54,354 nucleotides of DNA from a virus (Duplodnaviria; Heunggongvirae; Uroviricota; Caudoviricetes): positions 1 through 54,354 of the IMG/VR virus record IMGVR_UViG_2541047692_000008, one strand, 5' to 3'. The notes beneath the pieces were generated by a model, which ran no database searches, was not told where the DNA came from, and saw only the letters and a program-made list of their open reading frames with translations. The translations under genes and the position numbers were made by a program. Below are positions 5,132 through 52,280 of the stretch, piece by piece. Each line of letters starts with the position of its first letter. The stretch's first letter is position 1.

Positions 5132-5149
5132 TATGGCATCGCCTCCGGT

Positions 5150-6181
5150 TTACAAAATGGAATATTCAGGGTAATAAACAAAGCGCCCGATTTCCCCATG
5201 ATCCTGGCTATAAATAATCACCGCAGCCAGCCGCCGCGACCGCCAGCCGCCATTAGTCGAATAAGCGTCTTTACCCGCTAACGTGCCGTGATACTCAACA
5301 ACGCCTAACGATGATTCAATCAGCCGTTGATGATGCCAGTGCCCGCAATGAGCGTAAACCGCCGACGACTTGCCGAAATCTTCCCGCCAGTCAGAGACGC
5401 AGGCAGCCAGCAAATTTTCTGGTTTTTTGATAGTGTGACCGTGATGATAGGCAAGGAATGTTTTGCCGTACTGTGTGTGGTGTACGATAGCAGGGGACAC
5501 GTCAACCGTTACGCGCGGTTCATCTTCGTAAAAAGCAGCCAGCGCCGCACGTAGCCAGATCATTCCTGATTGGTCGTGGTTGCCGGATAATACCTGGATT
5601 TCGATTTCTTTGTGGTTTAACAACATCTTTCCTACCGCCCGCCGGACAGACCGGATCGCCACATAAACAAGTTTTGCGTAGCGTGAATCGCAATCAAGTA
5701 CGTGATTGCTTGATGGCGTCACTGGCAACAGCCCATCAGTGTGAAGAACATCCCCACCGAGAAGCAATACAGCTTTTTCAGACATCGGCGCTGCTCCTAC
5801 CGCGTAGTCAAAGAAATCATTTATCACGCGCTCAGCGATCCCAGTGTCGTAGCTTTCTCCGCATTCAGCTTTATGAGCAAGCGCCCCGATATGCAGATCA
5901 AATACTGGATAAAGGGCCAGGCTTTTTTGAAAATCAATTTCCGGCACTGGCACGGCCTCCGCGCGGGGCATTTCTTCCGTGAAAGCATCACAAGCCGATT
6001 GAATCAGCCTTTCCATTTCATCGCGATCACGGGCTGTTTTAATCCAGCGCATAATCACATTGCCATCTTTATCAACGAGCAATGATTCACCGTCAACACC
6101 GAAGCCAGGAGCGCGGCGAGTGGATATTAAACCGCGCTTCGCCAACCTTGCGCCCAGTCGTTCGACATTGCGTTTTGACAT
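5150..6181 (-). CDS. Calcineurin-like metallophosphoesterase with N-terminal HTH (N-terminus appears split by a frameshift)
   Basis: Motifs DLHIG, GGDVLHTD, GNHD, HHGH, GHWH; HTH ...YKQIAEKYGMSKRNVERL continues upstream of the annotated ATG in frame, while a well-placed RBS+ATG at 6249 is in another frame. Confidence 0.6.
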   Translation of the reverse strand: MSKRNVERLGARLAKRGLISTRRAPGFGVDGESLLVDKDGNVIMRWIKTARDRDEMERLIQSACDAFTEEMPRAEAVPVPEIDFQKSLALYPVFDLHIGALAHKAECGESYDTGIAERVINDFFDYAVGAAPMSEKAVLLLGGDVLHTDGLLPVTPSSNHVLDCDSRYAKLVYVAIRSVRRAVGKMLLNHKEIEIQVLSGNHDQSGMIWLRAALAAFYEDEPRVTVDVSPAIVHHTQYGKTFLAYHHGHTIKKPENLLAACVSDWREDFGKSSAVYAHCGHWHHQRLIESSLGVVEYHGTLAGKDAYSTNGGWRSRRLAAVIIYSQDHGEIGRFVYYPEYSIL

Positions 6182-6282
6182 GCCGTATTTTTCAGCGATC
6201 TGTTTATACGTTAAACCGTTTGTTCATCGCTGATCTTTCTTTGTGACATAGTGTTATTTCCTAAGGTTTACATTTTGTATAC

Positions 6283-7227
6283 TCATTGGCAGCAAACAAT
6301 CTCTTTGTATGCTTCTTCTACCATGTAGAATACTTCCGGACTGTAATAGAAAAACTCATTACTACCATTAAATTTTACAGGAAAGTTAATTTTATAATTG
6401 CTAAAAGCCTTATGCATCGTTCTTTCTAATTCATATATATTTTCGGTTGGTCCATATAGCGTTTTCACGATATGCAAATCAGGAATTATAACGCCTGCTT
6501 TATGTGCGCTTCTTAATACCTGATTTCTTCGCTCGTTCTCCTTAACACTTACACCTATTTTCATTTGTGTAGGTACTTCCAGATCATCAACCATGATGTA
6601 AAGTTTTCCGTGATCGTGGGATAAAAACCCGTATTTCGCGCATTTCTGGCAACCGCGCCCGTGTTTAATGTTGCAAGGTCTAGCCGACCACTCATGATCA
6701 CAGACCTTGCAGCGGCATAATACTTTTGTTTTGTCATTAACAATTTCACCTATCACTTCGATATTGGGATTAACCTTTGCAATAGCTGCAACTTGTTCTT
6801 CATGCGTCAATCTTTTTTGTCCTTGCTTTAATCTTGCGCATTTCGGGCAACCCATCCCGCGCTTAAGGTCGCCAGGAATAGGCGACCATTTATGATCGCA
6901 AACTTTGCAGCGGCATAATACTTTTGTTTTGTCGCCAGTAATTTCCCCCAATACTTCAACATCAGGGTTAACTTTCGCAATAGCTGCAACTTGTTCTTCG
7001 TGTGATAATATTCGTTTTTGCGCGCGTTTTAATACCCCGCATTTCTGGCAACCGTTACCTCGTTTAATGCTGGCAGGCTTAGTCATCCACTCATAATCAC
7101 AAACTTTGCAGCGGCATAATACTTTTGTCCCGCTGTTTACTATTCTCCCTAACACTTCAATATCAGGATTAACTTTCGCAATAGCTGCAATTTGCTCTTC
7201 ATGCGTCATCTTGCGCGGCATAATCAC
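6283..7227 (-). CDS. Zinc-ribbon triple-repeat protein with C-terminal T5orf172-like domain
   Basis: 314 aa; three about 66 aa repeats HEEQ(V/I)AAIAKVNP..KVLCRCKVCDH.W....K.G.GC.KC (two CxxC pairs each); C-terminal ...YIMVDD...KIGVSVKENERR...ELE..MHKAF...EFFYY resembles T5orf172/GIY-YIG-related pattern (recalled, not searched). Confidence 0.6.
   Translation of the reverse strand: MIMPRKMTHEEQIAAIAKVNPDIEVLGRIVNSGTKVLCRCKVCDYEWMTKPASIKRGNGCQKCGVLKRAQKRILSHEEQVAAIAKVNPDVEVLGEITGDKTKVLCRCKVCDHKWSPIPGDLKRGMGCPKCARLKQGQKRLTHEEQVAAIAKVNPNIEVIGEIVNDKTKVLCRCKVCDHEWSARPCNIKHGRGCQKCAKYGFLSHDHGKLYIMVDDLEVPTQMKIGVSVKENERRNQVLRSAHKAGVIIPDLHIVKTLYGPTENIYELERTMHKAFSNYKINFPVKFNGSNEFFYYSPEVFYMVEEAYKEIVCCQ
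6625..7206. repeat. Intragenic tandem repeat, about 198 bp x 3
   Basis: gcagcggcataatacttttg recurs at 6709, 6907 and 7109; corresponds to the three zinc-ribbon protein repeats. Confidence 0.8.
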
Positions 7228-7373
7228 TTCTCCTTGCTAAATCCAACAAAACGCCTCAGACGCGCTACAACGCAAAATTCCACCGCGTAACCCATTTGCA
7301 CAGGTTGCAGTGTCTTATTGCGTCAGAGGCGCTATCAGGTGTCTAATTTTTGATTTACAGAATGGTAGGTAGG

Positions 7374-7475
7374 TTATGGATTGACTAGAAGGAACAAACC
7401 GCCGAACAAAGCGACGTTAACAGCGATTGCGGCAGCGATGGCAAAAGCCAGGGCGAAAACGTGTTTACCGTCCAT
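7374..7475 (-). CDS. Small hydrophobic peptide (33 aa)
   Basis: Hand-found: MDGKHVFALAFAIAAAIAVNVALFGGLFLLVNP, preceded by gagagga RBS; lies in the 380 bp intergenic region upstream of the zinc-ribbon gene. Confidence 0.35.
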   Translation of the reverse strand: MDGKHVFALAFAIAAAIAVNVALFGGLFLLVNP

Positions 7476-7608
7476 TTTAAAATCCTCTCTGTAACGCTCT
7501 ATAACGAGCTAATCGCAAAAAGGTAAGCAAGTGTAGCACCACATGCGATTTAGCTCGCTGGTGAGGTTGTTTTGTGGGTAATTTTGGATTTTTGCGGATC
7601 GTGATTGG

Positions 7609-8655
7609 TCAAAGAGCGCCAGCGCGCGTATCACGTAGCGTTTTTGGTTTAAGCAGGAAATCAAGTGTCGCGGTGAAGCCATCGCCGAAGTAAAAATCTG
7701 AAGCCGTGTTTTTGAACGTTTCGAAGTAGGCGACAAAGCCGTTAATGCTTTTGTCTTTCAGGTAGTCAGTGAACGCATAGATCTTGCGTTCAAGATCCCG
7801 ATCCAGTTCGGCAGGTGGTAACAGGCCGTCAAACGTGCTGTTAAATGCTTCCACCACGTCGGCAGCGTTTACAGTGGCTGACAGTTTGCGCCATTGTTCA
7901 GCATCAGTCAGATACCCATCAAATTTAGTTACCCGGCAAATATTGATAGGCTTAGGTGTTCCACCACGGCTACGCCATTGCGTTAAAGCCCACTCAATCA
8001 CTAATGTGATCTCATCCTCCGTATACGCTTTACGTGTTTTTGTTTCTGTCAGTAGTTCGATGAATGGCTTCGCATCACGACATTTGCATCCTGCCTTGTC
8101 GTTGTAGAAGGCCAGGCAACGCAACGCCGCTTCGTTTACGCCATCCTGATTGACTATTTTTTGTTCATTTTCGACAATACACGAAGTGTATATATCTTTT
8201 TCTCTTTCTTCTTCTACTTCTAATTCATGACCCTTTCCTGACCCGGTCATGACCCTATCATGACCTTTTTGTGTTGGATTGATTAACTTTTCTAATTTTA
8301 ATTGCTCCTTAGCTGTGTTTATGGCGGCCCTGTAAGCGCTTTTAGAAGTCATTGATTGGTCCAGCCTTTTTAATAACTTTAGGCAAGTTATGTGGCCTTG
8401 AGAACATTCGAACAAACCGATTTCGATGAAGTATTTCATCATTTCTTCTATACGTTTTTCAGTCGATCCGACGTTTCGAGCAATGATTCTCGCGTCATGT
8501 CGTAGGTCAAAAGTCAGATTGTGCTGATCTACGTCATAAGTTATTAGTTCGAGGCAATACCAATAAAGCCCGTACCCTTCCAGGCCATAATCTAACAAAA
8601 CGTTTTGAAGTTTTTCATCGCGGTTCGCATCGCTGTCATGCTTAAACCACTTCAT
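7609..8655 (-). CDS. Phage replication initiation protein (DUF4373-like N-terminal domain)
   Basis: 348 aa; N-terminus MKWFKHDSDANRDEKL...YGLEGYGLYWYCLELI matches the Lin1244/Lin1753-type N-terminal pattern of phage replisome organisers; position upstream of helicase. Confidence 0.65.
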   Translation of the reverse strand: MKWFKHDSDANRDEKLQNVLLDYGLEGYGLYWYCLELITYDVDQHNLTFDLRHDARIIARNVGSTEKRIEEMMKYFIEIGLFECSQGHITCLKLLKRLDQSMTSKSAYRAAINTAKEQLKLEKLINPTQKGHDRVMTGSGKGHELEVEEEREKDIYTSCIVENEQKIVNQDGVNEAALRCLAFYNDKAGCKCRDAKPFIELLTETKTRKAYTEDEITLVIEWALTQWRSRGGTPKPINICRVTKFDGYLTDAEQWRKLSATVNAADVVEAFNSTFDGLLPPAELDRDLERKIYAFTDYLKDKSINGFVAYFETFKNTASDFYFGDGFTATLDFLLKPKTLRDTRAGAL

Positions 8656-8658
8656 AGA

Positions 8659-8926
8659 TCATCCCTCCGGCAACATCACTACATAGACATCACTGAATGC
8701 ATCAAGACGACAAACAAATCCTTTATCCATTAACGCGGCGAAGGCATCATGTACCGTATGAACAGGAAGTTCACACGTTGCGGCTACTTCTTTGCGTGAT
8801 GCATCATGTACCCGTCCTTTGTTATCTGCCTTTTCAGCCAGAGCCATTAAGACAAGTTTTTGAATCGGGCTATTAAGTTTTACGTTCCATGCTTTACTAA
8901 TCATGTTTATACTCATCGCATTTTCT
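8659..8926 (-). CDS. HTH DNA-binding protein at Cro position (early regulator or replication-associated)
   Basis: Track ORF starts TTG at 8994; ATG at 8926 (MSINMISKAW...) has aggagaaaa RBS; motif KLVLMALAEKADNKG typical of HTH_36-type winged helix; first gene of operon divergent from the repressor. Confidence 0.55.
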
Positions 8927-8994
8927 CCTATGGTTAGAGTGAACGCGCGGGCGGGCATCCCATTAGCATTAGATAGCAGTGACTGACCGCTCAA

Positions 8995-9221
8995 CAGATC
9001 CCGCCGTTGCGTGATATTTGTTTTTCGCTTCGCAGCGACACCGGATTTTTAAAGAGCATAAGGTAAGTGCCTTTTTGTGCCTTCCGTTATCTTTTTCCTT
9101 GCGTCTTTGCAAGTATGGCCTTACCTTGTCTGCAAGTTTACAAAATGGAATTTTAAGATCAAGGCTTAAAATACACGTTTTGTGACTTGCATCAAACTTT
9201 TTGAGGTTATAGGGTAGCGAC
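8995..9221. promoter_or_regulatory. Divergent immunity-region control region with candidate operators
   Basis: CTTGC/GCAAG inverted half-sites at 9097-9114 and 9124-9137, ACTTGCA at 9185-9192, plus GTTTACAAAATGGAAT at 9136-9151. Confidence 0.45.
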
Positions 9222-9869
9222 ATGAAAACAAAATGGTATGACTTAGCAAAGCAGCTCATGCGGGCGCAGGGCATGAGCCAGGATTCGCTCGCGGATCGTA
9301 TGGGGATAACTAAAGGCGGCCTGTCACACTGGCTGAACGGTCGCCGAGAGCCAAATCTTGAAGATATTGCGCGGATTATGCGCGAGCTTGGTCGTCGGCA
9401 GTTTACTGTTACACATGATGGCATGGTCATTGATGATTCTGTTTCTAATACACTTCAGGCCGTGCCGCCGCGTGATTTAGGTAGTTACCCGGTTATTGAC
9501 TGGAAGGACACAGTAAACAATATGGATGACGCAAGGCGTTCAGCATTACGACACGTTACGACTAGCGTTATTTGTTCAGATGACAGTTACTGGCTGGTTG
9601 CCAAAGGTGAATCAATGAACGCGCCGCAGGGGTTGAGCATCCCGGCGGGGACGATGATACTTGTGGACCCGCACGCGCCAGCTATTGACGGCAAACTGGT
9701 TATAGCCCAGCTTGAGGAAGGGCAGATACCGACGTTTAAACAGTTGATTATTGATGGAGGTCAAAGGCTTTTACGTTCGCTCAATCCGCTGTATCCGCCA
9801 ATCCCTATGAATCCAGAATCAAAAATTATAGGCGTGGTGGTTGATGCGAAGATCGTAAACCTGCCATAA
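9222..9869 (+). CDS. cI-like repressor (HTH-XRE + S24 LexA-type peptidase)
   Basis: 215 aa; N-terminal HTH (MSQDSLADRMGITKGGLSHWLNGRR), C-terminal S24 signature ...VAKGESMNAPQG...GTMILVDP...GKLVIAQL. Confidence 0.85.
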   Translation: MKTKWYDLAKQLMRAQGMSQDSLADRMGITKGGLSHWLNGRREPNLEDIARIMRELGRRQFTVTHDGMVIDDSVSNTLQAVPPRDLGSYPVIDWKDTVNNMDDARRSALRHVTTSVICSDDSYWLVAKGESMNAPQGLSIPAGTMILVDPHAPAIDGKLVIAQLEEGQIPTFKQLIIDGGQRLLRSLNPLYPPIPMNPESKIIGVVVDAKIVNLP

Positions 9870-9875
9870 ACATTA

Positions 9876-9899
9876 GCCGCCGAATGGCGGCTTTTCTTT
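9876..9899 (+). terminator. Rho-independent terminator after repressor gene
   Basis: gccgcc-gaat-ggcggc stem-loop followed by ttttctttg. Confidence 0.6.
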
Positions 9900-10274
9900 G
9901 CCTGGAAAACACCAAAACGTAAACAGAAAACGTTATTTATTATTTAAATATCAATGGCATATAAAATATTTTAAAAAAGTATACAAAATGGATTGACTCG
10001 ATGTTTTACGGGGCGTATATTGCGAGTCAAAGGAAGGGCGCAGGTAACAAAAGCAACTTCCTGGCACTTTAAAAATCAGGCTTAACACCTTGTCAACCGT
10101 GGAGTAACTCCCCGATGGGGGACCGAAAGCGGCACTGATAACAAGGCGCATGGGGTGTTTAAAGCGTTACATCCCCCACGAAACCGCACGCAAGGCGACG
10201 AGTCAGCTTGCTTGGAGTGAGCAAGGTCACGCCGGGAACGGCGATGATTGCGGGATTAGTTGAAAGATGTTAAG

Positions 10275-10313
10275 CCGCTCATTAACAATCTGGTCAGCCG
10301 CTGGAAGTGCGGC
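10275..10313 (+). promoter_or_regulatory. Candidate nut site (boxA-like CGCTCATTAA + boxB-like hairpin)
   Basis: cgctcattaa resembles boxA consensus CGCTCTT(T)A; 11 nt later gccgc-tggaagt-gcggc hairpin with purine-rich loop; about 60-95 nt upstream of the N-like ORF. Confidence 0.45.
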
Positions 10314-10408
10314 AATTAACGAAGATGATTTTTTATTAAGTATCATCAAGGATATACGGAGATCAGATTATGAGCGTTACAATTATATATGGTAAATGTG
10401 ATAGCAAA

Positions 10409-10660
10409 ATGAATGCCAGGGAACGCAGAAGGATAAAAAGAGAAAACGAAAGAAAATCATCACCTGCAATCAATAAAACAGACAATGTGGATAAAGCTAT
10501 TCGATTTGCAAACGAGGAAAGATGCAAACCAAATAGCATTAAAGAACGTCGCAAAGGATCAGTAAAATGGTATACGGAAAATGAAAGCGGCAGCTACTAC
10601 CACGCAACGCAACCACGCCATTTAGGGGAAAAACCCCTGGATAAAGTCCGCTACCATTAA
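10409..10660 (+). CDS. N-like antitermination protein candidate (arginine-rich motif)
   Basis: Track ORF 10370..10660; internal ATG gives N-terminal MNARERRRIKRENERK arginine-rich motif like lambdoid N proteins; small basic protein at start of operon. Confidence 0.45.
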   Translation: MNARERRRIKRENERKSSPAINKTDNVDKAIRFANEERCKPNSIKERRKGSVKWYTENESGSYYHATQPRHLGEKPLDKVRYH

Positions 10661-10806
10661 TACAAAATGTAAACATCCGGAGATGACATTATGGTTATTC
10701 AGGCGCTTCAATTCAAACTGGCAGTAGCGGAAATGCTTCACGATGCCGAAATGTGGAGCGCCGCGAATAAAGCCTTATACATAGTGTTAACAGCACGGGA
10801 GATTAA

Positions 10807-11867: not shown

Positions 11868-11882
11868 TTCAATAGGTTAGCG

Positions 11883-12161: not shown

Positions 12162-12175
12162 TGAGGTATTAAATC

Positions 12176-12400: not shown

Positions 12401-12516
12401 GCATGGTAAAAATTGCGGCATTAGCCGCCGCCTTCGTTATTGGGGTGATTTATATCACAGCTTCTTTTTATGTCGCCGTTTTTATTGCTGAATTAATTGT
12501 TGCATTGTTGGGGTGA
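12397..12516 (+). CDS. Small single-helix membrane peptide (39 aa)
   Basis: Hand-found: MSMVKIAALAAAFVIGVIYITASFYVAVFIAELIVALLG; ATG overlaps previous stop (ATGA). Confidence 0.35.
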   Translation: MSMVKIAALAAAFVIGVIYITASFYVAVFIAELIVALLG

Positions 12517-12519
12517 GTT

Positions 12520-14047: not shown

Positions 14048-14050
14048 CAG

Positions 14051-14066
14051 CGTGATTGCGATCACA
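14051..14066. promoter_or_regulatory. GTGA-N6-TCACA palindrome with GATC (CRP-like site)
   Basis: cgtgattgcgatcaca; followed by atacattttgtat motif; intergenic upstream of gene 14147. Confidence 0.4.
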
Positions 14067-14146
14067 TAAATATACATTTTGTATTGTGATTGCATATCCG
14101 TTTTGTAAGCCGAAATCAAAAGGTTTACGGTGCGGAGGAAAACAAG

Positions 14147-14365: not shown

Positions 14366-14463
14366 TTATGGACGACACATTGTTTTATATGTGCTGTTGC
14401 TGGGGTTTTATTGCCTTATGTCTGTTTATCAGGTGGTTTATTGAATACCATATGAGGTGAGGC

Positions 14464-17608: not shown

Positions 17609-17630
17609 AGTTTACAAAATGGCGTCATTG

Positions 17631-17646
17631 CGTGATATGGATCACA
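17631..17646. promoter_or_regulatory. GTGA-N6-TCACA palindrome with GATC (CRP-like site)
   Basis: cgtgatatggatcaca flanked by inverted tttacaaaatgg (17611-17622) and ccattttgtata (17678-17689). Confidence 0.4.
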
Positions 17647-17767
17647 TAATGGCGCTTTTCGCCTTGTTCTGGTGCATCCATTTTGTATACTTCAAGCAAA
17701 CAAAATGCTCTTTAAAAATCCGGCAGCGCTGAAATGCGTAGAAATCACCTGAAAAGGAGAGAGCATT

Positions 17768-23879: not shown

Positions 23880-24099
23880 AATGATTTTAACGTGTAACGA
23901 ATCGGGATTAGGTTGTTTTGAGGAAGGAGCACAGTACACGGCTGAAAAACCGATGGGATTGTCTCCTAAATTTCCGTTTATCGTCGTGACTGACACTTAC
24001 GGTCACTTATGGTATGCAGGGCCGCTAGGCGGTATTGGTCGTTATGTTGTCCGTAGTTCGGATGGGGCGATGAAGGTTACTTTTACGGAAGAAACGTAA
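23872..24099 (+). CDS. Small protein, tandem paralog 4 of 4
   Basis: MILTCNESGLGCFEEGAQYTAEK...FIVVTDTYGHLWYAG; alternative ATG at 23881. Confidence 0.5.
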   Translation: MHKMILTCNESGLGCFEEGAQYTAEKPMGLSPKFPFIVVTDTYGHLWYAGPLGGIGRYVVRSSDGAMKVTFTEET

Positions 24100-24100
24100 A

Positions 24101-24116
24101 TGTGATCTGTATCACA
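24101..24116. promoter_or_regulatory. TGTGA-N6-TCACA palindrome with GATC (CRP consensus-like)
   Basis: tgtgatctgtatcaca; followed by inverted tacgaaatggca / tgccattttgtta pair (24119-24160). Confidence 0.45.
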
Positions 24117-24197
24117 AGGTTTACGAAATGGCATTGTTTCGACAGTGCCATTTTGTTATAAAGAAGCTGAAGAGAGAACGATGCGGAGGGTAGAAAA

Positions 24198-38404: not shown

Positions 38405-39103
38405 ATGATCCATGTTCGTACAGGACAATTTGCTGCCGTGGTGAACGGTAAGCGCTATGAGTTTAATCCTTGCTTTGCTGCGATGGCTAAAATCGGCAAC
38501 GATAGTGAGCTTGTCGAATATTTCGCACTTATCCACGGCGGCAAATATCCATCACGATTGCCAGCAGATCCAGACCTACGCAATCGCATTCTGGCGCGGT
38601 GTTATGGTGAAATAGTTCAGACATCAATGCACATCCTGAAATGTTGCTCAGACGACGAAATAGGCCCGTTATTGGGCGAATGCTGGTTTACTCCTTCGGG
38701 TAAGTTAAAGTTAAAGCCCGGATTAATGCCGATCGAGGATATCATCACGCTTGCGCAGCACTGCATGTACCACGGTCTTATTGGTGATGGCCCGGAAGAA
38801 GAGTCCGGGGAAATCCCGGAAGGGGAATATAAGCCGACTTTTAACGTCCTTGAATTCGTCTATTCTGCCGTTGCTCACCTGGGCTTGTCAGAATCGGAAG
38901 CATGGAATATGACAATGACCGGATATAGGGCCGCTGTACGCGCTAAAACGCCGCCAGACGAAAGAAACGAGAAAAGCAAGCCAAACATTCACATAAATAA
39001 ACGTGCTTATGACGAGCAAATGGAGGCCGCTAAAAAGGCACTAGAAAGAATGAAAAATCGTGAGCAAGAAAAGCCCGGTAGATCCGGGCGTTTTGCTAAT
39101 TGA
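38405..39103 (+). CDS. Tail assembly chaperone candidate (232 aa)
   Basis: Track ORF 38396..39103 (GTG); ATG 38405 after aaggtga RBS; position between tail tube and tape measure; no frameshift site identified. Confidence 0.4.
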   Translation: MIHVRTGQFAAVVNGKRYEFNPCFAAMAKIGNDSELVEYFALIHGGKYPSRLPADPDLRNRILARCYGEIVQTSMHILKCCSDDEIGPLLGECWFTPSGKLKLKPGLMPIEDIITLAQHCMYHGLIGDGPEEESGEIPEGEYKPTFNVLEFVYSAVAHLGLSESEAWNMTMTGYRAAVRAKTPPDERNEKSKPNIHINKRAYDEQMEAAKKALERMKNREQEKPGRSGRFAN

Positions 39104-39470
39104 AATCTTTAATTGCTGTACCTGGTGAACTGTGTGTGATTGTATTGTATACAGACTTTGCCTTACTGCGATCTTTCCATTCTTTTAGGATGCAGTTATC
39201 AAACTTTGCGATAACCCTTGAAGGGGATAATTCTTCAACATCCATGTAAGTAAATCCTATCGTGCTGGTTACTGAATACCATACGTGATAACTATAATTA
39301 CCGTCATGCTCGATTCTTTGTGGTTCCCCCATTATTTTATTCACTTGCTCACAAGTCATTCCAACTTGCAAATTTTTATCAGCTAACTTAACGAAATCAG
39401 TTGATCTTGCGCACCCTGTAAGAGCTAAAGCCATAACACCAATGAGAACCGCTTTGATTATTTTTTTCAT
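39096..39470 (-). CDS. Lipoprotein (moron, opposite strand to late operon)
   Basis: 124 aa; signal peptide MKKIIKAVLIGVMALALTGC with lipobox LTGC. Confidence 0.65.
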   Translation of the reverse strand: MKKIIKAVLIGVMALALTGCARSTDFVKLADKNLQVGMTCEQVNKIMGEPQRIEHDGNYSYHVWYSVTSTIGFTYMDVEELSPSRVIAKFDNCILKEWKDRSKAKSVYNTITHSSPGTAIKDFN

Positions 39471-39480
39471 GATTTACCCC

Positions 39481-40140
39481 TTAATTCCAGTTGCAAGCGT
39501 TTTTCACTTTGTCGATGTGGTTATAAAGACCATCAATGTTAAACACTGCTTTCTCAATGTCGCCAGCTTCCGGCACTACTTCAATGATGAATTGTTTTTC
39601 GTTAACCAGTTTTTTAATCATTGGGATGGCTTTTTTGCCGTCCCATAATCCAAGAGCTTTATAATTAGTTGACCGCCACCACTCAGTAGCTACAGCTTTG
39701 TGAACGCCGATCCGGTAGTTAATATAAGTAGTGTCCCCGGCGTCAGTTACATGGTGTGACCATGCTACGAACATTTTTGTTTTATTACCCTGGCAAGCGA
39801 TTGTTAATACCGGTTTATTCTTATCCTGTGCCTTCAGTGTCGGGAAAGCATCAAGACTTCCGCTGAATTGTTCTGCTTTCACAAAAAGGAATACGTTTTT
39901 TGCGTCCTGCATATCATCTTTTCTTTCAACTACAAGCCACTGTTTACCAGCATTTTCTTTTTCTAACTGTGCATCGTATGCGGCTTGTTTTGCTTGTTGT
40001 TCTGCAAGCCATTTAGCATTTTTCTCTGCTAATGCTTGTTGCTCTTGATTGGTCACTATAGGCGCTTTTTCATTATCCTCATTGCAACCAACCAGACCCA
40101 ATACCGCCGCAATCATTGCCACTTTTGCTAACCGTTTCAT
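39481..40140 (-). CDS. Lipoprotein (moron, opposite strand to late operon)
   Basis: 219 aa; signal peptide MKRLAKVAMIAAVLGLVGC with lipobox LVGC; Q/A/K-rich linker. Confidence 0.65.
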   Translation of the reverse strand: MKRLAKVAMIAAVLGLVGCNEDNEKAPIVTNQEQQALAEKNAKWLAEQQAKQAAYDAQLEKENAGKQWLVVERKDDMQDAKNVFLFVKAEQFSGSLDAFPTLKAQDKNKPVLTIACQGNKTKMFVAWSHHVTDAGDTTYINYRIGVHKAVATEWWRSTNYKALGLWDGKKAIPMIKKLVNEKQFIIEVVPEAGDIEKAVFNIDGLYNHIDKVKNACNWN

Positions 40141-40187: not shown

Positions 40188-40227
40188 TATACAAAATGGA
40201 GTCGTTGAAGTAAAGCCATTTTGTATA
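40188..40227. promoter_or_regulatory. Perfect 12-bp inverted repeat of dispersed motif (TATACAAAATGG / CCATTTTGTATA)
   Basis: tatacaaaatgg-N16-ccattttgtata immediately upstream of tape measure gene, followed by cagatcaca. Confidence 0.5.
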
Positions 40228-40267
40228 AAATAGATACACAGATCACATTTTTGCATGAGGTTAAATC

Positions 40268-42610: not shown

Positions 42611-42614
42611 ACTA

Positions 42615-42696: not shown

Positions 42697-42951
42697 TCAC
42701 TTATGAGTGCCTTTCACGCCACATAACTTGTTATAGGCATGGTGCTCAACAATTAACCAAACCTTCAAATCTTCGCTAAACAGCCTCCAATCAAGATTGA
42801 TATCCATTTTGTATCCGTAACCGTCGCGTAACTTTTTGGGGTAAACTTCTTTTCTCAGAAAGGCTTTAAGTAATTCCTTACCTTTCTTGATGATCCGGTC
42901 CTGTGCGTTTTTCTGTGCTTTCAGATTTCTGTCAATCGCTACCAGTTTCAT
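42697..42951 (-). CDS. Hypothetical protein (84 aa), possible RelE/YafQ-like toxin
   Basis: C-terminus ...DWRLFSEDLKVWLIVEHHAYNKLCGVKGTHK loosely resembles YafQ/RelE C-terminal pattern; second gene of a two-gene minus-strand cassette. Confidence 0.4.
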   Translation of the reverse strand: MKLVAIDRNLKAQKNAQDRIIKKGKELLKAFLRKEVYPKKLRDGYGYKMDINLDWRLFSEDLKVWLIVEHHAYNKLCGVKGTHK

Positions 42952-42968
42952 AACTCACCCCATCATCC

Positions 42969-43124
42969 TTAGTTAAGTGCCTTCAGGAAGAAGTCCCGGT
43001 ATTCATCTTCTTTCGCATTCATCATGAATTGACCGTATTTGAATGCGTCGTCGAAACCCTTAACGATTGCTATTTCCACTTGTTCGAATGCGTTATTTAG
43101 CATTACTACTACATAGCGTTTCAT
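42969..43124 (-). CDS. Small protein (51 aa), upstream partner of 42697..42951
   Basis: Hand-found; strong RBS aaggagg; MKRYVVVMLNNAFEQVEIAIVKGFDDAFKYGQFMMNAKEDEYRDFFLKALN. Confidence 0.4.
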   Translation of the reverse strand: MKRYVVVMLNNAFEQVEIAIVKGFDDAFKYGQFMMNAKEDEYRDFFLKALN

Positions 43125-43231
43125 TTTGGGCCTCCTTCGTTGGTACTACTTTCTTCTTGCTTTCTATATACATCTTGTTGCGTGCTATGTGAAGCCATTT
43201 TGTAAACTAGCTATAATCATTGTGACAATGA

Positions 43232-43261: not shown

Positions 43262-43291
43262 TATATACAAAATGTAACTTGTGGGGGTTTT

Positions 43292-43645: not shown

Positions 43646-43842
43646 TGGGGGTTGTTATGTACGGGACTTGTGTAGTTGACAAAACTTACGCTTTTACATT
43701 GTTTGACGACTATGAGATCAACGACCTTACTGTAAAAGCTGACAACGGCGATATATGGTATCTTCACGACGTTGGTGATGGGTACGTTGGGTGTAGATCC
43801 CGGGAAGGGAAGGAGGTTTTATTTTTGGTTGATGGCGTATAA
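43645..43842 (+). CDS. Hypothetical small protein (65 aa)
   Basis: ORF inserted between M and L genes. Confidence 0.4.
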   Translation: MGVVMYGTCVVDKTYAFTLFDDYEINDLTVKADNGDIWYLHDVGDGYVGCRSREGKEVLFLVDGV

Positions 43843-43847
43843 ACACG

Positions 43848-43875
43848 ACCCCGCGCGAAGCGGGGTTATTTTTAT
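43848..43875 (+). terminator. Rho-independent terminator
   Basis: accccgcgc-gaa-gcggggt followed by tatttttatt. Confidence 0.55.
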
Positions 43876-43998
43876 TCTATTTCCATTAATGCTATATTTT
43901 CTGCTATCGTTTTCCAGTCCAGATCTACAGCATGAACGCCAAATACTATCAACCCCATTATTATTAGCGCCAAAACTTCTATTTTTATAATCAGTCAC

Positions 43999-44247
43999 CT
44001 ATAAGTTATCACGCAGATAATTAACGCCCTTATCAGTGACGAATGAATGGTTAACCTGGTTTTCATCCGTCATGATGATGAATAACTTTTCATGTAGGTA
44101 TTTCGCTTTCGGGTACAGCGTTAAACAGACCTGGTACAGTATCCCGCGCTCAATCAGCAAATCAATAAATTCGTGTTCATGATAACCGATGAGGCGGGCG
44201 GCCTGTTTCAACGTGTACACATAATCACCGTGATTGCGCCGCCCCAT
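43999..44247 (-). CDS. Putative HTH DNA-binding protein (82 aa)
   Basis: YTLKQAARLIGYHEHEFIDLLIERG helix-turn-helix-like segment; last gene of three-gene minus-strand cassette. Confidence 0.5.
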   Translation of the reverse strand: MGRRNHGDYVYTLKQAARLIGYHEHEFIDLLIERGILYQVCLTLYPKAKYLHEKLFIIMTDENQVNHSFVTDKGVNYLRDNL

Positions 44248-44256
44248 GTTGCCGCC

Positions 44257-44604
44257 TTATTTATCGAATGCTGAAAGGTTATCGATACAGAAATCTTTCG
44301 CCGCTTTTTCGTATTCGCGTTTTGCTTCTGGATCGTCAGCCGGGAAACCTTTTGCGTGTATTTCACCAGGGCAAGACTGGTCCATAGAATCTGCATAATA
44401 AGCAGTGAAGCTACCATTAATATCTTTCGGGTTCATATCTTCCACCTCATCAACTATCTGTACCGGATTAGCAGCATATTTCACTGGATGGCCTAAACTA
44501 CATTCAAGAATCCTGCCTTCTTCCAGGGCTACTTCTTCGCTATCAAATAATCCGAAACACTCCTTGCTACCACTTAACCACACATCAAGACTGTATTTTT
44601 TCAT
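44257..44604 (-). CDS. Hypothetical acidic protein (115 aa)
   Basis: Track ORF 44257..44706; ATG 44604 (MKKYSLDVW...) overlaps upstream gene end by 20 nt. Confidence 0.45.
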   Translation of the reverse strand: MKKYSLDVWLSGSKECFGLFDSEEVALEEGRILECSLGHPVKYAANPVQIVDEVEDMNPKDINGSFTAYYADSMDQSCPGEIHAKGFPADDPEAKREYEKAAKDFCIDNLSAFDK

Positions 44605-44773
44605 TTTTGTTAGCCTCATATTTGACAGGTTCGATCTGGTATCCCAAAAGGCGGTCATCCTCAGCAAGTAAAAGCGCGTCAACCAATGCTTCACCCTCGT
44701 CGTCATACAGGGCGATAACCTTTTCCCTACCGTCTGTCATGAATACCGTCAACTTCCATAGCTTTTCAGTCAT
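44585..44773 (-). CDS. Hypothetical small acidic protein (62 aa)
   Basis: Track ORF 44585..44893; ATG 44773 preceded by ggaggtg RBS; MTEKLWKLTVFMTDGREKVIALYDDEGEALVDALLLAEDDRLLGYQIEP... Confidence 0.5.
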   Translation of the reverse strand: MTEKLWKLTVFMTDGREKVIALYDDEGEALVDALLLAEDDRLLGYQIEPVKYEANKNEKIQS

Positions 44774-44868
44774 AACGCACCTCCGCGCCATTTTGTTAAC
44801 TATGCTTCCGTTTGAGTAAAATATACATATTGTAAAAACCGCGATCAATCCATTTTGGTATGATTTAG

Positions 44869-44884
44869 CGTGACGCAGATCACA
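44869..44884. promoter_or_regulatory. GTGA-N6-TCACA palindrome with GATC
   Basis: cgtgacgcagatcaca in the intergenic region between the minus-strand cassette and gene L. Confidence 0.35.
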
Positions 44885-44902
44885 GAATGACAAGGTGAGA
44901 AA

Positions 44903-45607: not shown

Positions 45608-45609
45608 TT

Positions 45610-46341: not shown

Positions 46342-46814
46342 ACGTTGATACGCCAGCACAAGGACTTAGCCTATTGACCGCGCAGAATCAGGAGTTCAAG
46401 AAGGCTTTTTTAAATACACCTTTGCGGTTACGGATTGCCGGGAAAGATTATAACGAAAAGACGGCCCCGGCAGCGGTTAATAGTAAATACCCTGACGGAA
46501 CTACCGTCATTATTGCGCCAGTAGTTGAAGGCGGTATTGCTGGGATTGGTGTTGTAGGCTGGATCCTGATTGGTGTTTCGGTGGTTAGCGTTGCGTTCTC
46601 AATCTTTATGTCCCGCAACATGAAGATAAAAACATCGGCAGAAAGCGCACAAGATAACACCATAACGAACAACACCTACACCAGCATTGAAAACAAGGTG
46701 GGCCAGGGTAGACCAGTGCCAATACTATTAGGTGAAATGAAAATAGGTTCAAACGTCGGATCGTTAGGCATAGACACAAGCAACAATAGAGACGCCTTAG
46801 ACGTTGTAAGTTAA
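46284..46814 (+). CDS. Tail assembly protein I (lambda gpI-like)
   Basis: 176 aa; ubiquitin-like N-terminal region and hydrophobic segment; position between K and J. Confidence 0.75.
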   Translation: MLKFRFTGNLRRYYGKVCLNVDTPAQGLSLLTAQNQEFKKAFLNTPLRLRIAGKDYNEKTAPAAVNSKYPDGTTVIIAPVVEGGIAGIGVVGWILIGVSVVSVAFSIFMSRNMKIKTSAESAQDNTITNNTYTSIENKVGQGRPVPILLGEMKIGSNVGSLGIDTSNNRDALDVVS

Positions 46815-46827
46815 CAGGAGAAAAACC

Positions 46828-49800: not shown

Positions 49801-51798
49801 GCAGAAATGAATGTGATGGACACAAACCTTAAAGGTCAGATCTCTAATGTGCAACGCGCAGTAGCTGACGAGGCCAGCGCCCGCGCTGAAGCTATTAACG
49901 GTGTAAATGCCTCAATAAGCAATCTTGACAAGAAAACTGACGCCAGCGTAAACCGTCTTGATCAGGCAATTGCAGACGAAACAAGTGCGCGTACTCAGGC
50001 TATCAGCGACGTGAACGCAAGTATCTCAACACTTGACAAGAAAACTGACGCCAGCGTTAAGCGCCTCGATAATGCAATATCAGATGAAACGCAGGCAAGA
50101 AGCGACGCAATAACAGTGGTTAAAGCTGATTTAACAACGCTTGAAAATAACACAAATGCCAGTGTTAGCCGTCTTGATCAAGCTATCGCTGATGAATCAA
50201 GCGCACGTGCTCAGGCGATATCAGGTATCAGCGCGACGCTTGGCGGCGTTAAAAGTGAGGTTGATAAAAACAGCGACGAGATAGATCAGGCGAAAGCAAG
50301 TCTGCAAAACGCATCTCTGGCGCTTATTAATAACTCAATGGCGCAAAGCAAGATGAGCACTGTTATTGAGGCGAAATACAGGAAAGGACAAACAAAAACA
50401 AAAGCGGAAATAGCAAGGGTAGACACAGCAATCGCAGATGAGGCGAGCGCACGCGCAGAAGCTATTAGCAACGTTAACGCCAGCGTCAGTAGTCTTGAAA
50501 GCAAAACCGACGCGAGCGTTTCCCGTCTTGATAAAGCAATCGCAGATGAGGCGAGCGCACGCGCAGAAGCTATTAGCGGGGTTAATGCGTCAATTTCCAC
50601 GCTCGATAGCAAGGTGACAAGCAACGTAACCAGGATGGATAAAGCGATCGCAGATGAGAAGAATGCACGCACTGACGCAATCAGCAGCCTTAACTCATCG
50701 CTTACCAGTACGATTAATTCGAAAGTATCCGAAGTGTCAACTGCACTTTCTACGCATGAAACATCAAGCGCGGAAAAATTTGGCCAGATCTCGGCATCTT
50801 TCGACGATGTAAACTCAAGCATCACGGAATGGTCACAGGCTATGGCAACGGCAGACGAGGCATTGTCAACCAGAATCGACCAGTTGAAAGTAACTATTAA
50901 CGGAAACACAACGGCGATAGAAACGACATCAAAAGCACTGACTGACTTCAAAGGTAACGTTGATGCGTCATATTCAATTAAGATTGCCACTGATAAAAAC
51001 GGTATGAAATACGCTACAGGAATGTCGCTCGGCCTTACTGGTAGCGGGACTAACGTTCAATCGCAGTGTATTTTCCTCGTTGACCGTTTCGTGCTTATGA
51101 CTGCGGCAGGTGGCTCCTATCAGACCCCGTTCTATGTTACTAACGGTGCTTGCTACATCCGTGATGCGTGGATCAGAGACGCATCAATCACTACCGCGAA
51201 GATTGCGCAGCAAATTCAGTCAACCAACTATAAAGCTGGTTCGGCTGGCTGGATGCTAAATAAAAACGGCAATGCGGAGTTCAACAACGTCACTGTACGC
51301 GGTACGGTGTACGCAACATCTGGTAAATTCACTGGTGAGATTCAGGCCACAAGCGGGAAGTTTAAAGGTACAGTAGAGGCAAAGTCATTTGTCGGTGACG
51401 TTGCTAACATGGGGGTTGGTCCAGATCGAGTGCTTGGGCATAACGGAAGTTATAGCGCAACCATCACATATAAAGACAGCACGGATAATGCATTGACGAA
51501 ATCAGTTATGCTTATGGCGACTATTTCATTAATGTCTGGTGAATATAGATCCACTTATAACGTAACGTTTAGTTGCGGAGATAAAAACAAAACAATTTCA
51601 TATTACGTGCCTTATGGTGGATGCACATTAACAGTGCAATGCGCTTTTTCTGGTTTAAAAGCATCAGATATTATCGGGAAAATATATTGTCCTCAAACAT
51701 CATCATCTGAAGGATACGCATATTGTACCGCGTTGTATTCTCCAACAATGATAGTAGCAAGAGGCACCGGATCATTTAGAACATCAACGACAGCATAA
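46828..51798 (+). CDS. Tail tip host-specificity protein J (lambda gpJ-like) with inserted coiled-coil repeat region
   Basis: 1656 aa; N-terminal 900 aa closely parallel lambda J as recalled (ISEGPIYGPV, WSSYSEIIDD, YHLRGLIVDVPDNYNPETRTYSG, FGCTSRGQAHRAG); residues about 930-1300 are 40-aa tandem repeats. Confidence 0.9.
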   Translation: MSSGGGKAKTPTLLNDNLYHKQFYRVLDILSEGPIYGPVNQKAPLNDVMLNDTPVTDANGNTSIPGISIAWRNGTADQSPINGFNAIESTVIVNAKVTHDTPIIRTVSDPNVTRVRLNLGVDALVQSDEKGNQYNTSVMLMVDVKPSSSSTWSLIKDIHIGPGKQSGEYLEAHIIKAPDEKPFDIRVRRITPDSNGDLLRNDTRWSSYSEIIDDNLSYPHTAVAGAVIDHDQYTDTPTRTYHLRGLIVDVPDNYNPETRTYSGLWLGGFKKAYTNNPAWLFRYLVKNERFGLARHAGYIDVDDGALYVLSQYCDQLVDDGYGGLEPRMTLNAYITEQMSARDLLDNIAGMFRGIALWDGQRLTVMIDAPQDPIATITNANVVDGAFTRSSIARAECYNAVIVSWTDPENGWEQSKEYVADDKLIARDGYNETTLEAFGCTSRGQAHRAGKWLIETAKREPSKFTFKMARDAIHFTPGDIIEILDNNRAGARLGGRIVANNGRAITVDKVDSEYIAAGDTISLLDSDGKFKKHQIIGVNGNIITLAAAPAWIRNGTVFAVSTNAAKPVLCRITSVAETENNSVYTIEAAQHDPHKQAVVDNGAIFEINNDTLNHFRVPNIENLKVLNVGSETVQCRATWETQTTTRRLTFEIRVYNAEGAVVKSYETTNYSYDFYGIDAGNYSLGIRGRNDTGMKGAESIVDLVIGAPAAPVGVNWVPGVFQATVYPISRTTLTTDTSYEFYYSGETQITDPASITTKAQYTGRGHQWTFGGMNTGHTYYVYVRARNAFGVSDFVEASGKPTENFDEITDYVTKDVMNSKQFKEMVGDIKDLGDRTDLIESATNDLKTATDNLKTATDNLTNITDDLRTETDNLTIETGSIKADTDTLKKETEDLYKKVKENADDIGQHESRIDSLEVSSEKVGSELAQAKASLQNASLALINNSLAQTNTRVTLTAQYKKGRTETKAEIDRIDNVIAEEKKATAESLETITAEMNVMDTNLKGQISNVQRAVADEASARAEAINGVNASISNLDKKTDASVNRLDQAIADETSARTQAISDVNASISTLDKKTDASVKRLDNAISDETQARSDAITVVKADLTTLENNTNASVSRLDQAIADESSARAQAISGISATLGGVKSEVDKNSDEIDQAKASLQNASLALINNSMAQSKMSTVIEAKYRKGQTKTKAEIARVDTAIADEASARAEAISNVNASVSSLESKTDASVSRLDKAIADEASARAEAISGVNASISTLDSKVTSNVTRMDKAIADEKNARTDAISSLNSSLTSTINSKVSEVSTALSTHETSSAEKFGQISASFDDVNSSITEWSQAMATADEALSTRIDQLKVTINGNTTAIETTSKALTDFKGNVDASYSIKIATDKNGMKYATGMSLGLTGSGTNVQSQCIFLVDRFVLMTAAGGSYQTPFYVTNGACYIRDAWIRDASITTAKIAQQIQSTNYKAGSAGWMLNKNGNAEFNNVTVRGTVYATSGKFTGEIQATSGKFKGTVEAKSFVGDVANMGVGPDRVLGHNGSYSATITYKDSTDNALTKSVMLMATISLMSGEYRSTYNVTFSCGDKNKTISYYVPYGGCTLTVQCAFSGLKASDIIGKIYCPQTSSSEGYAYCTALYSPTMIVARGTGSFRTSTTA
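49600..50730. repeat. Intragenic tandem and duplicated repeats within J
   Basis: gcgaaagcaagtctgcaaaacgc at 49606 and 50290 (681 bp apart); about 120-bp periodic units encoding TDASV.RLD.AIADE.SAR..AI..VNAS. Confidence 0.75.
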
Positions 51799-51800
51799 AA

Positions 51801-51826
51801 AACGGGGCATAAGCCCCGTTTTTTTT
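51801..51826. terminator. Terminator after J
   Basis: aacggggc-ataa-gccccgtt followed by T8. Confidence 0.65.
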
Positions 51827-51837
51827 ATGCATTGTTT

Positions 51838-52083
51838 TTATTTTTTACACCCATCATTTACACCAGAAAAATGGATAGGTAAATTACATTCACTGTCAAT
51901 AATTTTACCTTGTAGTTGTTTTTCTTTCCATGAGTCAGTATTGAAATAACTCGAACGTTGGTTATCAAGGCCAGTATCACCATATTGAGCAGTGCCAGCA
52001 TCACTCTTATCTGTCGAATTTACAGAAGCAAAAGCACCAAAAGACAGAGCTGATAAGATGCAAGCAACAATTAGTTTTTTCAT
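51838..52083 (-). CDS. Small secreted protein with signal peptide (81 aa)
   Basis: Track ORF 51838..52140; ATG 52083 after aaggtga RBS; MKKLIVACILSALSFGAFASVNS signal peptide; two Cys in mature part. Confidence 0.55.
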   Translation of the reverse strand: MKKLIVACILSALSFGAFASVNSTDKSDAGTAQYGDTGLDNQRSSYFNTDSWKEKQLQGKIIDSECNLPIHFSGVNDGCKK

Positions 52084-52219
52084 TGTATTCACCTTACTGT
52101 TTGTTTTACTGTCATTTGTTGTTCGTGATGATCCACCCATCCGATGAGCAAATCACCGCAGAAGCTATCATTTCGTATGTTGATATAGATCAAAAAATAC
52201 ATTATGTATAAACCAAAAG

Positions 52220-52235
52220 TGTAACACAGATCACA
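52220..52235. promoter_or_regulatory. TGTAA-N6-TCACA palindrome with GATC upstream of tail fibre gene
   Basis: tgtaacacagatcaca followed by caaaatgg motif. Confidence 0.35.
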
Positions 52236-52280
52236 AAATGGTAGAATTGTTTAGTTAATTAACAAAACGGAGTTATTGCG

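Follow-up and report, generated by a model that had tools for sequence, protein, structure and literature searches.

A dispersed motif in an mEp021-like E. coli prophage is probably the operator of its CI/C2-type repressor

A short motif, TACAAAATGG, recurs mostly between the genes of the prophage in IMG/VR record IMGVR_UViG_2541047692_000008, a stretch of 54,354 nucleotides (nt) that we analysed as a whole and call the window. We conclude that this motif is most probably part of the operator of the prophage's own repressor, Rep, which is encoded at 9222-9869 on the plus strand and is of the CI/C2 type (Pfam domains HTH_3, 1.5e-12, and Peptidase_S24, 5.8e-19). The sequence, statistics, conservation and geometry of the copies support this assignment, together with a match between recognition helix and operator class across phages. 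The new part is the dispersal of the sites, which lie on secondary promoters, at antisense cassettes in the tail operon and in short gaps within operons.

Results and discussion

Enrichment and placement of the motif

TACAAAATGG is the most over-represented 9-12-mer of the window. We counted its copies on both strands and used 100 dinucleotide-preserving shuffles as controls. There are 10 exact copies versus 0.22 expected, a number reached in none of the 100 shuffles, and 25 copies with at most one mismatch versus 6.2 expected (largest shuffle 12). The dispersed, enriched motif reported by the first-pass annotation of the window is thus borne out, and so is its placement between genes: 18 of the 25 copies, including 7 of the 10 exact ones, are intergenic, though intergenic sequence makes up 8.7% of the window (binomial p = 2e-14). 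All five divergent intergenic regions have copies, and neither of the two convergent ones does.

The positions given in that annotation were right to within a few bases. GTTTACAAAATGGAAT at 5148-5163 recurs as an identical 16-mer at 9136-9151, and a perfect 12-bp inverted pair is located at 40188-40199 and 40216-40227 with a spacer of 16 bp. Further copies are at 6270(-), 7356, 9982, 10661, 14074(-), 14098(-), 17613/17678(-), 24122/24148(-), 43195(-)/43266, 44788(-) and 52232, and the copy at 44850 is the variant CCATTTTGG. Overlooked at that stage were two exact copies in coding sequence (32196 and 42804), a one-mismatch copy at 9227 in rep codons 2-6, and related palindromes at 10006, 43168, 44823 and 52197.

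Structure of the site

An alignment of 15 intergenic copies shows a compact element of 13-14 nt, with an information profile spanning 13-14 bp and no consistent flanking signal. The aligned consensus is GTWTACAAAATGG(A/C)W, and four copies read TACAAAATGTA(A/T), a near-palindrome. The full site is taken to be pseudo-palindromic and 13 bp long, WTAC-N5-G(T/G)AW with five A/T-rich central bases that are usually AAAAT; TACAAAATGG would comprise its strong half together with the centre and the initial G of the weaker half. Such a site falls among pseudo-symmetric sites of 13-18 bp. The strict pattern WTAC-N5-GKAW, with at least four A or T in the centre and all eight arm positions matched (8/8), is found 13 times in the window versus 2.3 expected. 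The relaxed pattern with 7/8 arm positions is uninformative in the window, with 61 observed versus 45 expected.

Tandem pairs with centres 24-25 bp apart, i.e. about two helical turns, are seen at seven loci, namely at the rightward early promoter PR and at six others (centres 10666/10690, 14078/14102, 24127/24152, 40195/40220, 43174/43199 and 44829/44855). The first-pass annotation had described the copies as often forming inverted pairs. The pairs are real, but most copies are single, and those at 24.1 and 40.2 kb seem better read as adjacent operators with their strong halves pointing outward, since the 25-bp spacing also occurs at PR. Five copies abut the -35 element of top-scoring sigma-70-like promoters with a gap of 1-2 nt (each p <= 6e-4).

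Sites on the early promoters flanking rep

The two control regions flanking rep share just one sequence longer than eight bases, AAGT(T/A)TACAAAATGGA, and in both of them predicted operators overlap core promoter elements. The leftward early promoter, PL, reads TTGATC-16-TAAACT; its operator TTACAAAATGGAA (9138-9150, plus strand, arms 8/8) overlaps the -10 TAAACT (9140-9135, minus strand). The -35 TTGAYC and the -10 of PL are retained across 25 unique relatives amid varying surrounding bases. PR, TTGACT-17-TATATT (9993-10021, plus strand), is the best sigma-70-like promoter of the window (score 14.6) and the one promoter found by a simple promoter scan of the window. The last base of its OR2-like operator ATACAAAATGGAT (9981-9993, plus strand, 8/8) is the first T of the -35 TTGACT, an abutment with p = 0.0001. 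The OR1-like operator TTACGGGGCGTAT (10006-10018, plus strand, arms 8/8, G+C-rich centre) is 25 bp from the former and covers the spacer and the -10 TATATT (10016-10021); in relatives its right arm is invariant and its left arm is TTAC or TCAC. Across 33 unique family sequences the PR block from -61 to -29 hardly varies (two columns at 90% or more).

A weaker operator, ACACGTTTTGTGA (9173-9185, plus strand), has the form ATACGTTTTGTGA or ATACATTTTGTGA in the relatives shown. Its centre is at about -41 from a -10-like hexamer, TATAGG (9208-9213), just before the ATG of rep, which is the placement of OR2 relative to PRM in lambda. By this analogy Rep might regulate and activate its own gene from 9173-9185, and Rep has acidic residues that, by reading of the sequence, align with E34 and D38 of lambda CI. 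The operator-like AAACAAAATGGTA (9226-9238, plus strand, arms 6/8) in rep codons 2-6 is a candidate; it is kept in relatives but lies in coding sequence.

Other binders and other sites in this region were considered. Rep is about 40% identical to P22 C2. Among the 41 family loci in which we found it, its identity is never below 90%, and its N-terminal domain is 97% identical to that of Rep021, the repressor of mEp021. Covariation of Rep and motif within the family offers no test, as Rep is at least 90% identical everywhere. The Cro-position protein, encoded by the first gene of the leftward operon (8659-8994, minus strand), has no Pfam match; it is 28-99% identical among loci L023-L064, and we dropped it as the binder on account of this variation while the motif stays constant. 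PHROG and Pfam scans of the neighbouring small genes gave no further regulator candidates. A P22-like palindrome, ATTTTAAG-N7-CTTAAAAT, at 9150-9172 was dropped since it lies in the least conserved part of the region, and the idea of a Q-binding element was set aside since copies are also found on early promoters.

Two further kinds of words were noticed here. At 9100-9138 TGCAAGT is repeated 23 bp apart, with CTTGC-N-GCAAG-like palindromes just downstream of the PL start, and the related TTGCGAGTCAAAGG follows the -10 of PR. These words are conserved, yet they lie outside what the operator model explains; the palindromes were dropped as Rep operators since nothing similar is found at PR, whereas the motif is there. 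Also family-conserved is TATCAATGGCATA at 9950-9962, about 55-65 bp upstream of the PR start, which has the IHF core WATCAANNNNTTR with one mismatch.

Phages with the same recognition helix have the same class of palindrome

We compared phages outside the family whose repressors share the N-terminal domain of Rep. Five of them, from other groups, also share its recognition helix: Erwinia phage Midgardsormr38, Enterobacter phage ENT1, Klebsiella phage KPP5665-2, Salmonella phage L and Vibrio phage H8. The helix is GITKGGLSHWLNGRREP in Rep, GITKGAVSHWLNARREP in Midgardsormr38 and ENT1, GITQGGLGHWLNARREP in KPP5665-2, GKTQGAIGHWLNGRREP in L and GMSQSAIAHWLGGNRKP in H8, i.e. the form ...T(K/Q)Gxx(S/G)HWLN... 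with a close variant in H8, and most of these repressors share the N-terminal arm as well. Overall identity to Rep is about 40-45% where measured over the full length. Each of the five phages has two or three xTAC-N5-GTAx palindromes in the flanking regions of its repressor gene, so that sequence specificity tracks the recognition helix across the five.

Midgardsormr38, a classical lambdoid phage, was the one scanned over its whole genome. Its CI is 45% identical to Rep overall, with a near-identical N-terminal arm and helix (MKWYDLAK...GITKGAVSHWLNARREP versus MKTKWYDLAK...GITKGGLSHWLNGRREP). The cI-cro intergenic region holds ATACAATCTGTAT, ACACATTTTGTAT and ATACGAAATGTAT, and the presumed OL holds ATACAAAATGTAT, ATACGTTTTGTAT and ATACGTTATGGAT, with spacings of 25-32 bp within each triplet. 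Across the 50-kb genome, the perfect-armed palindromes are restricted to the two regions on either side of cI, and a looser pattern adds two sites outside the triplets. The palindromes of ENT1 are ATACGTTTTGTAT, ATACGAATTGTGG and ATACAACTTGTAT; those of KPP5665-2 are ATACATAACGTAC, ATACAAAATGGAA and ATACGGAATGTAA, with ATACAAAATGGAA between the cro-like gene and rep. Phage L has TTACGAGATGTAT, ACACATATTGTAT and GTACGAAATGTAT between c2 and cro, and ATACAAAATGTAC and ATACTATGTGTAT on the other side of c2. The palindrome of H8 is TTAC-N5-GTAA. Two words, ATACAAAATGTAT and ATACAAAATGGAA, are identical between the window's family and these phages.

Repressors with the same helix thus go with the same palindrome class, and the motif of the window would therefore be the kind of operator used by this lineage of repressors. 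Operators for a phage regulator were among the first-pass suggestions, and this one gains support both from the palindromes at the operator positions of the five phages and from the copies on the -10 and -35 of the early promoters flanking rep.

Conservation in the family

The window is a prophage with 85-91% identity to mEp021, mEp010, mEp013, mEp044, mEp515, mEp554 and MagusPhagus, all of them temperate phages of E. coli, and it matches a chromosomal segment of E. coli MS 21-1 at 100% identity. By these matches we assign it to the mEpimmI (mEp021-like) family of E. coli phages. The family accounts for about half of the non-lambdoid Nus-dependent coliphages in a Mexican collection. The mEpimmI phages have been described as non-lambdoid and Nus-dependent with a single immunity type, encoding the CI-like repressor Rep021 and the N-like protein Gp17 and having three nut sites; the description gives no operators and no promoters, and it does not mention the motif (PMC11893012).

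Looking at the homologous positions of related phages, a check proposed along with the motif, we found copies retained in mEp021 and mEp010. We scanned IMG/VR for the inverted pair and obtained 20 stretches; 18 of them are family members, with the pair always upstream of the tape-measure gene. The arms of this pair are invariant in the 18 contigs even with flanks that are only 71-74% identical. At homologous sites in relatives the right arm alternates between GG and GT, as expected for an operator arm.

Sites outside the immunity region

Overall we found about 25 sites at 12 or more loci, many of them on promoter-like sequences. Instead of being confined to OL and OR, 20 or more of them are outside 9.1-10.0 kb, spread over about 10 loci.

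The clearest copy of the immunity-region arrangement is a leftward promoter, TTGATC-17-TATATT (44848-44820, score 12.0), a PR paralog with both operators in place. The operator ATACATATTGTAA (44823-44835, plus strand, 8/8) lies over its spacer and -10, and the variant ATACCAAAATGGAT with a 6-nt centre (44848-44861, minus strand) abuts its -35 (p = 0.0001). By eye the paralog (44820-44861, minus strand) is about 75% identical to PR over 40 nt, and it is read as driving the antisense cassette between the tail genes M and L. The operator-like TAACAAAATGGCG (44786-44798, minus strand, 5/8) is in the leader of this leftward cassette transcript, just before the Shine-Dalgarno sequence.

The tail operon is broken by antisense cassettes with genes for VasI/TagO-like, ParE-like and ANT-domain proteins, and at every divergent junction between a cassette and a tail gene (tape measure, M, L and tail fibre) operators are found on promoter-like sequences that point one way or both. 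Ahead of the tape-measure gene, in the region divergent from the antisense cassette, ATACAAAATGGAG (40189-40201, plus strand, 7/8), which is ATACAAAATGTAT in mEp021 and mEp010, is 25 bp from its partner ATACAAAATGGCT (40214-40226, minus strand, 7/8); the latter abuts the -35 of a leftward TTTACT-17-TATAAG (p = 0.0006). Upstream of M, TTACAAAATGGCT (43193-43205, minus strand, 7/8) abuts the -35 of a leftward TTCACA-17-TATATA (p = 0.0006), and the weak operator ATACATCTTGTTG (43168-43180, plus strand, 6/8) lies over the -10 TATATA of the same promoter. The 43193-43205 site, kept in mEp021 and mEp010, is also in the spacer of a rightward GTGAAG-17-TATAAT preceding M, and ATACAAAATGTAA (43265-43277, plus strand, 8/8) precedes the M start codon by 14 nt. 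The divergent region of the tail-fibre gene has the palindromic operator ATACATTATGTAT (52197-52209, plus strand, 8/8) and then the operator-like TCACAAAATGGTA (52231-52243, plus strand, 6/8), which overlaps a TGnTAGAAT extended -10 pointing at the tail-fibre gene (52281). A copy of ATACAAAATGGAT (42802-42814, minus strand, 8/8) inside the ParE-like open reading frame (ORF) is a candidate.

The antisense cassettes number four, all on the minus strand (39096-40140, 42697-43124, 43999-44766 and 51838-52140), and they interrupt or follow the tail operon; besides the VasI/TagO-like, ParE-like toxin-like and ANT/KilAC-domain products they encode several of unassigned kind. All four appear to have repressor-controlled promoters, and their genes may be early lytic rather than lysogenic-conversion genes.

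More sites are found between the immunity region and the tail operon. The perfect palindromic operator ATACATTTTGTAT (14072-14084, plus strand) has a tandem partner 24 bp away centre to centre, TTACAAAACGGAT (14096-14108, minus strand, 8/8), which is kept in mEp021. The operator-like TTACAAAATGGCG (17612-17624, plus strand, 6/8) is directly after a methyltransferase gene and is kept in mEp021 and mEp010, and ATACAAAATGGAT (17676-17688, minus strand, 8/8) overlaps the -10 of a promoter-like TTGTTC-16-TATACT. In the 25-bp pair at 24.1 kb the upstream member, TTACGAAATGGCA (24121-24133, plus strand, 7/8), abuts the -35 of TTGTTT-17-TATAAA (p = 0.0005), and TAACAAAATGGCA (24146-24158, minus strand, 6/8) covers the spacer and -10 of the same promoter.

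Several copies sit within early operons. TTACAAAATGGAA (5150-5162, plus strand, 8/8) is in the 18-nt gap before the helicase gene and overlaps the stop codon of the upstream gene; it is kept in mEp021 and reads TTACAAAATGTAT in mEp010. The palindromic TTACATTTTGTAT (6268-6280, plus strand, 8/8) is in a gap of the leftward early operon, and the operator-like TTACAGAATGGTA (7355-7367, plus strand, 7/8) is in a 381-nt gap of the leftward operon. ATACAAAATGTAA (10660-10672, plus strand, 8/8) is flanked by the N-like gene (10370-10660) and a small ORF that is Kil-like at a weak, sub-threshold level, and is kept in mEp021 and mEp010. The gaps with the 5150, 6268 and 10660 copies are 18-100 nt long. 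By reading, eight of the nine unpaired GG-type copies have the same orientation relative to transcription.

A proposed mechanism

We infer from these sequences that Rep could bind the predicted sites, repress and cooperate there, and act as a roadblock at some of them. One Rep dimer would occupy each site, and binding would be cooperative at pairs 24-25 bp apart, as in lambda. Within the immunity region the sites would occlude the -10 of PL and both the -35 and -10 of PR, with the weaker site at about -41 from the rep promoter. Elsewhere the operators would act on the duplicated PR, on the promoters of the antisense cassettes, on restart promoters inside the tail operon, on the promoter-like site just upstream of the third nut site, and in the gaps of the early operons. 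In a lysogen Rep would occupy all of these sites, silencing the early and all secondary promoters and possibly blocking read-through; upon induction of the SOS response, self-cleavage of Rep would release all of them together.

A broader proposal, to which we give somewhat less than an even chance, is that a CI-type repressor, cleavable in the SOS response, controls a network of about 25 sites throughout the genome, by which the duplicated early promoter, the antisense cassettes and the restart promoters of the tail operon are silenced, read-through in the early operons is blocked, and the immunity specificity is frozen. Specificity would be frozen because so many sites must co-evolve with the repressor, which would explain why the family has a single immunity group and a Rep that is at least 90% identical.

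Several points weigh against Rep operators as the explanation of the motif. Promoter scoring finds no convincing promoter near the copies at 5150, 6268, 7355 and 10660. Most copies have a degenerate second arm (GGCT, GGCG or GGAG), so that occupancy by a dimer could be weak there. Three of the promoter pairs are paralogs, and the repeats in geometry are not all independent. The intergenic fraction comes from a hand-made gene list, and both this list and the promoter matrix are approximations. The operators of the five comparison phages are assigned from position and symmetry. Finally, -41 is the classic position of an activator, and some copies may activate rather than repress.

Other explanations of the motif

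Among the alternatives the one that survives best, though we think it unlikely, takes the motif for a promoter module, recognised by RNA polymerase or an activator of phage or host and not by a repressor. The A-tract at -46 to -37 would then be a proximal UP-element-like or class II activator site, and the copies at -20 to -11 would be extended -10-like. The alpha C-terminal domain of RNA polymerase binds at -43 to -40, as in the UP consensus, and the five copies abutting a -35 do so in a fixed register with AAAA at these positions. The occurrence of copies in every divergent region and no convergent one fits as well, as do a CCATTTTGTA reading that runs into TAWACT-like hexamers and the CRP-like sites (see below) at -59.5 or -60.5 of five such promoter-like sites. 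However, the -20 to -11 register retains little signal after removal of the motif's own bases, the information profile has no -35 signal, and some copies are in gaps of 18-30 nt without promoters. UP elements do not require an invariant TAC...TGG, and a promoter module leaves unexplained the palindrome class at the operator positions of five phages with matching helices. An OR2-like operator that touches the -35 would give the fixed register as a matter of course. A core sigma-70 promoter, with CCATTTTG and TAWACT as the -10, was rejected, as the remaining -35 and -10 are near background except at PL and 17678.

It is considerably less probable that the copies mark boundaries for the gain and loss of accessory gene cassettes, a recombination signal comparable to the promoter-stem-loop (PeSL) cassettes of T4-type phages. 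One contig, L011, lacks 43658-44790, and the junction of this deletion (L011 positions 4790-4810) is inside the 44786-44798 site. For 31 relatives, homology is lost at 6261-6298, on the 6268-6280 site, and 7 of 121 breakpoint clusters are no more than 40 nt from a copy. HNH endonuclease genes adjoin the copy upstream of the helicase gene in mEp021 and mEp010. But most breakpoints are away from copies, the enrichment is about two-fold over the whole window, and homologous exchange can be anchored by any conserved intergenic element. No dedicated recombinase was identified, and a boundary signal accounts neither for the PL and PR copies nor for the match to the operators of other phages.

The first-pass annotation had also offered RNA hairpins, formed by the inverted pairs and used for processing or attenuation. 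This idea, to which a use in transcript stability can be added, finds no support and fares slightly worse still. The pairs do fold, with z-scores of -3.8 to -5.7; 24121-24158 gives a stem of 15 bp capped by a UUCG loop (-19.6 kcal/mol) and has a self-complementary 16-nt spacer, and one A-to-G change in mEp010 preserves pairing through a G-U wobble. Yet most copies are unpaired, and the sequence-constrained arms are invariant with zero compensatory changes across contigs whose flanks are 71-74% identical. In the tape-measure pair the 16-nt spacer lacks self-complementarity, and one pair only has a palindromic spacer. The arms are A/T-rich, no hairpin is followed by a U-run and none has an Rfam match; neither a G+C-rich stem with a U-run nor a covarying stem, as in a terminator or regulatory hairpin, is seen. 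In divergent regions the promoters must overlap the pair, and hence the hairpin would often not be transcribed.

Least probable of all is the remaining first-pass idea, a host regulator, for which we considered transcription factors like CRP, IHF, Fis and OmpR, for although the motif is invariant across the family and CRP-like palindromes adjoin several copies, the inverted pair is confined to the family in IMG/VR (18 of 20 matches), related motifs in other phages are always beside a repressor with a matching helix, the CRP-like motif is a separate one, and the 13-mer fits none of the consensuses compared by eye (sigma-32, sigma-54, CRP, IHF, Fis, DnaA, TyrR, OmpR, LexA and the MarA box).

Elements next to the sites

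Three boxA-like elements, GCWCTTTAAAAATCMGG, are found at 9041-9057 (minus strand), 10064-10080 (plus strand) and 17707-17723 (plus strand), matching the published positions of nutL, nutR1 and nutR2. Each follows an operator-bearing promoter-like site at a distance below 100 nt: the boxA of nutR1 is 43 nt downstream of PR, and that of nutR2 is 16 nt downstream of TTGTTC-16-TATACT (-10 at 17686-17691). This arrangement suggests a third early promoter at the TATACT before nutR2, and the position of all three boxA elements less than 100 nt after operator-bearing promoters suggests why the family needs a third nut site.

A second enriched motif of the window fits the CRP consensus TGTGA-N6-TCACA, with 11 matches versus 1.8 expected; TACAAAATGG itself lacks this dyad. 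CRP-like sites are at 9181-9196, 12444-12459, 14051-14066, 17631-17646, 24101-24116, 27894-27909, 40232-40247, 44869-44884 and 52220-52235, for example AAATGTGATCTGTATCACA at 24098. At PL, 14098, 17678, 24148 and 40190 they are centred at -59.5 or -60.5 relative to the -10-like hexamer, where class I CRP sites lie. The spacing suggests a cAMP-CRP input to the lytic promoters of the phage.

Adjoining the 6268-6280 site, an early-operon gene (6283-7227, minus strand) encodes a protein with CapR, treble-clef zinc-finger (DUF4379) and T5orf172/MUG113 domains, and it belongs to a cassette that is replaced in most relatives.

Implications

The operators left undefined in the published description of the family (PMC11893012) are now predicted, together with the early promoters and a promoter for the third nut site. 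If the proposal is true, a CI-type repressor silences genes globally, much as P1 C1 or L5 gp71 do, which to our knowledge has not been described for an integrating E. coli siphovirus. The VasI/TagO-like, ParE-like and ANT-domain cassettes would then be repressor-controlled early lytic genes and not lysogenic-conversion morons, and there would be a testable reason for the uniform immunity of the family. We also predict cross-immunity, or cross-recognition of operators, with Midgardsormr38, ENT1, KPP5665-2 and phage L.

Comparison with known systems

The immunity region resembles those of lambda, P22 and 434, in which CI (or C2), a repressor with XRE-type helix-turn-helix and S24 domains, likewise uses pseudo-palindromic sites over the -10 and -35 of two early promoters flanking its gene. 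A weaker site at about -41 of the repressor's own promoter and the combination of consensus and non-consensus halves are also common to these phages, and the spacing is similar to that of lambda OR1-OR2, adjacent sites being about 24-25 bp apart. Unlike theirs, the site in the window is 13 bp long with 4-bp arms and an A-tract centre, rep is co-oriented with the rightward operon, and about 20 further sites lie outside the immunity region. Lambda-type phages confine their operators to OL and OR, a point that we examined in Midgardsormr38. Midgardsormr38, ENT1, KPP5665-2 and L have the same operator class, N-terminal arm and helix as the window prophage, and differ in that the sites seen there flank the repressor gene, whereas ours are dispersed.

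Dispersed sites of a single repressor are known from two other systems. The repressor gp71 of mycobacteriophage L5 and cluster A phages has more than 20 copies of a 13-mer, at promoters and in short gaps within operons, with an orientation that follows transcription (PMC9283540). The placement of copies in short gaps and the co-orientation of the unpaired ones in the window are reminiscent of these stoperators, and elongation may be blocked here as well. The L5 protein is monomeric, has two DNA-binding domains and recognises truly asymmetric sites, in contrast to the HTH_3 and Peptidase_S24 domains of Rep and its pseudo-palindromic sites.

P1 C1 is not known to have an S24 domain and is inactivated by the antirepressor Coi, not by self-cleavage, and P1 is a plasmid prophage and a myovirus, unlike the prophage in the window. 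Its operators are 17 bp long and asymmetric (ATTGCTCTAATAAATTT), and both their sequence and the protein family are unrelated to those of Rep. The 22 operators of C1 are spread over the whole P1 genome, single or as inverted pairs, and overlap promoters (PMC8546580). As in P1, the many scattered operators of the predicted network in the window would place separate operons under one repressor.

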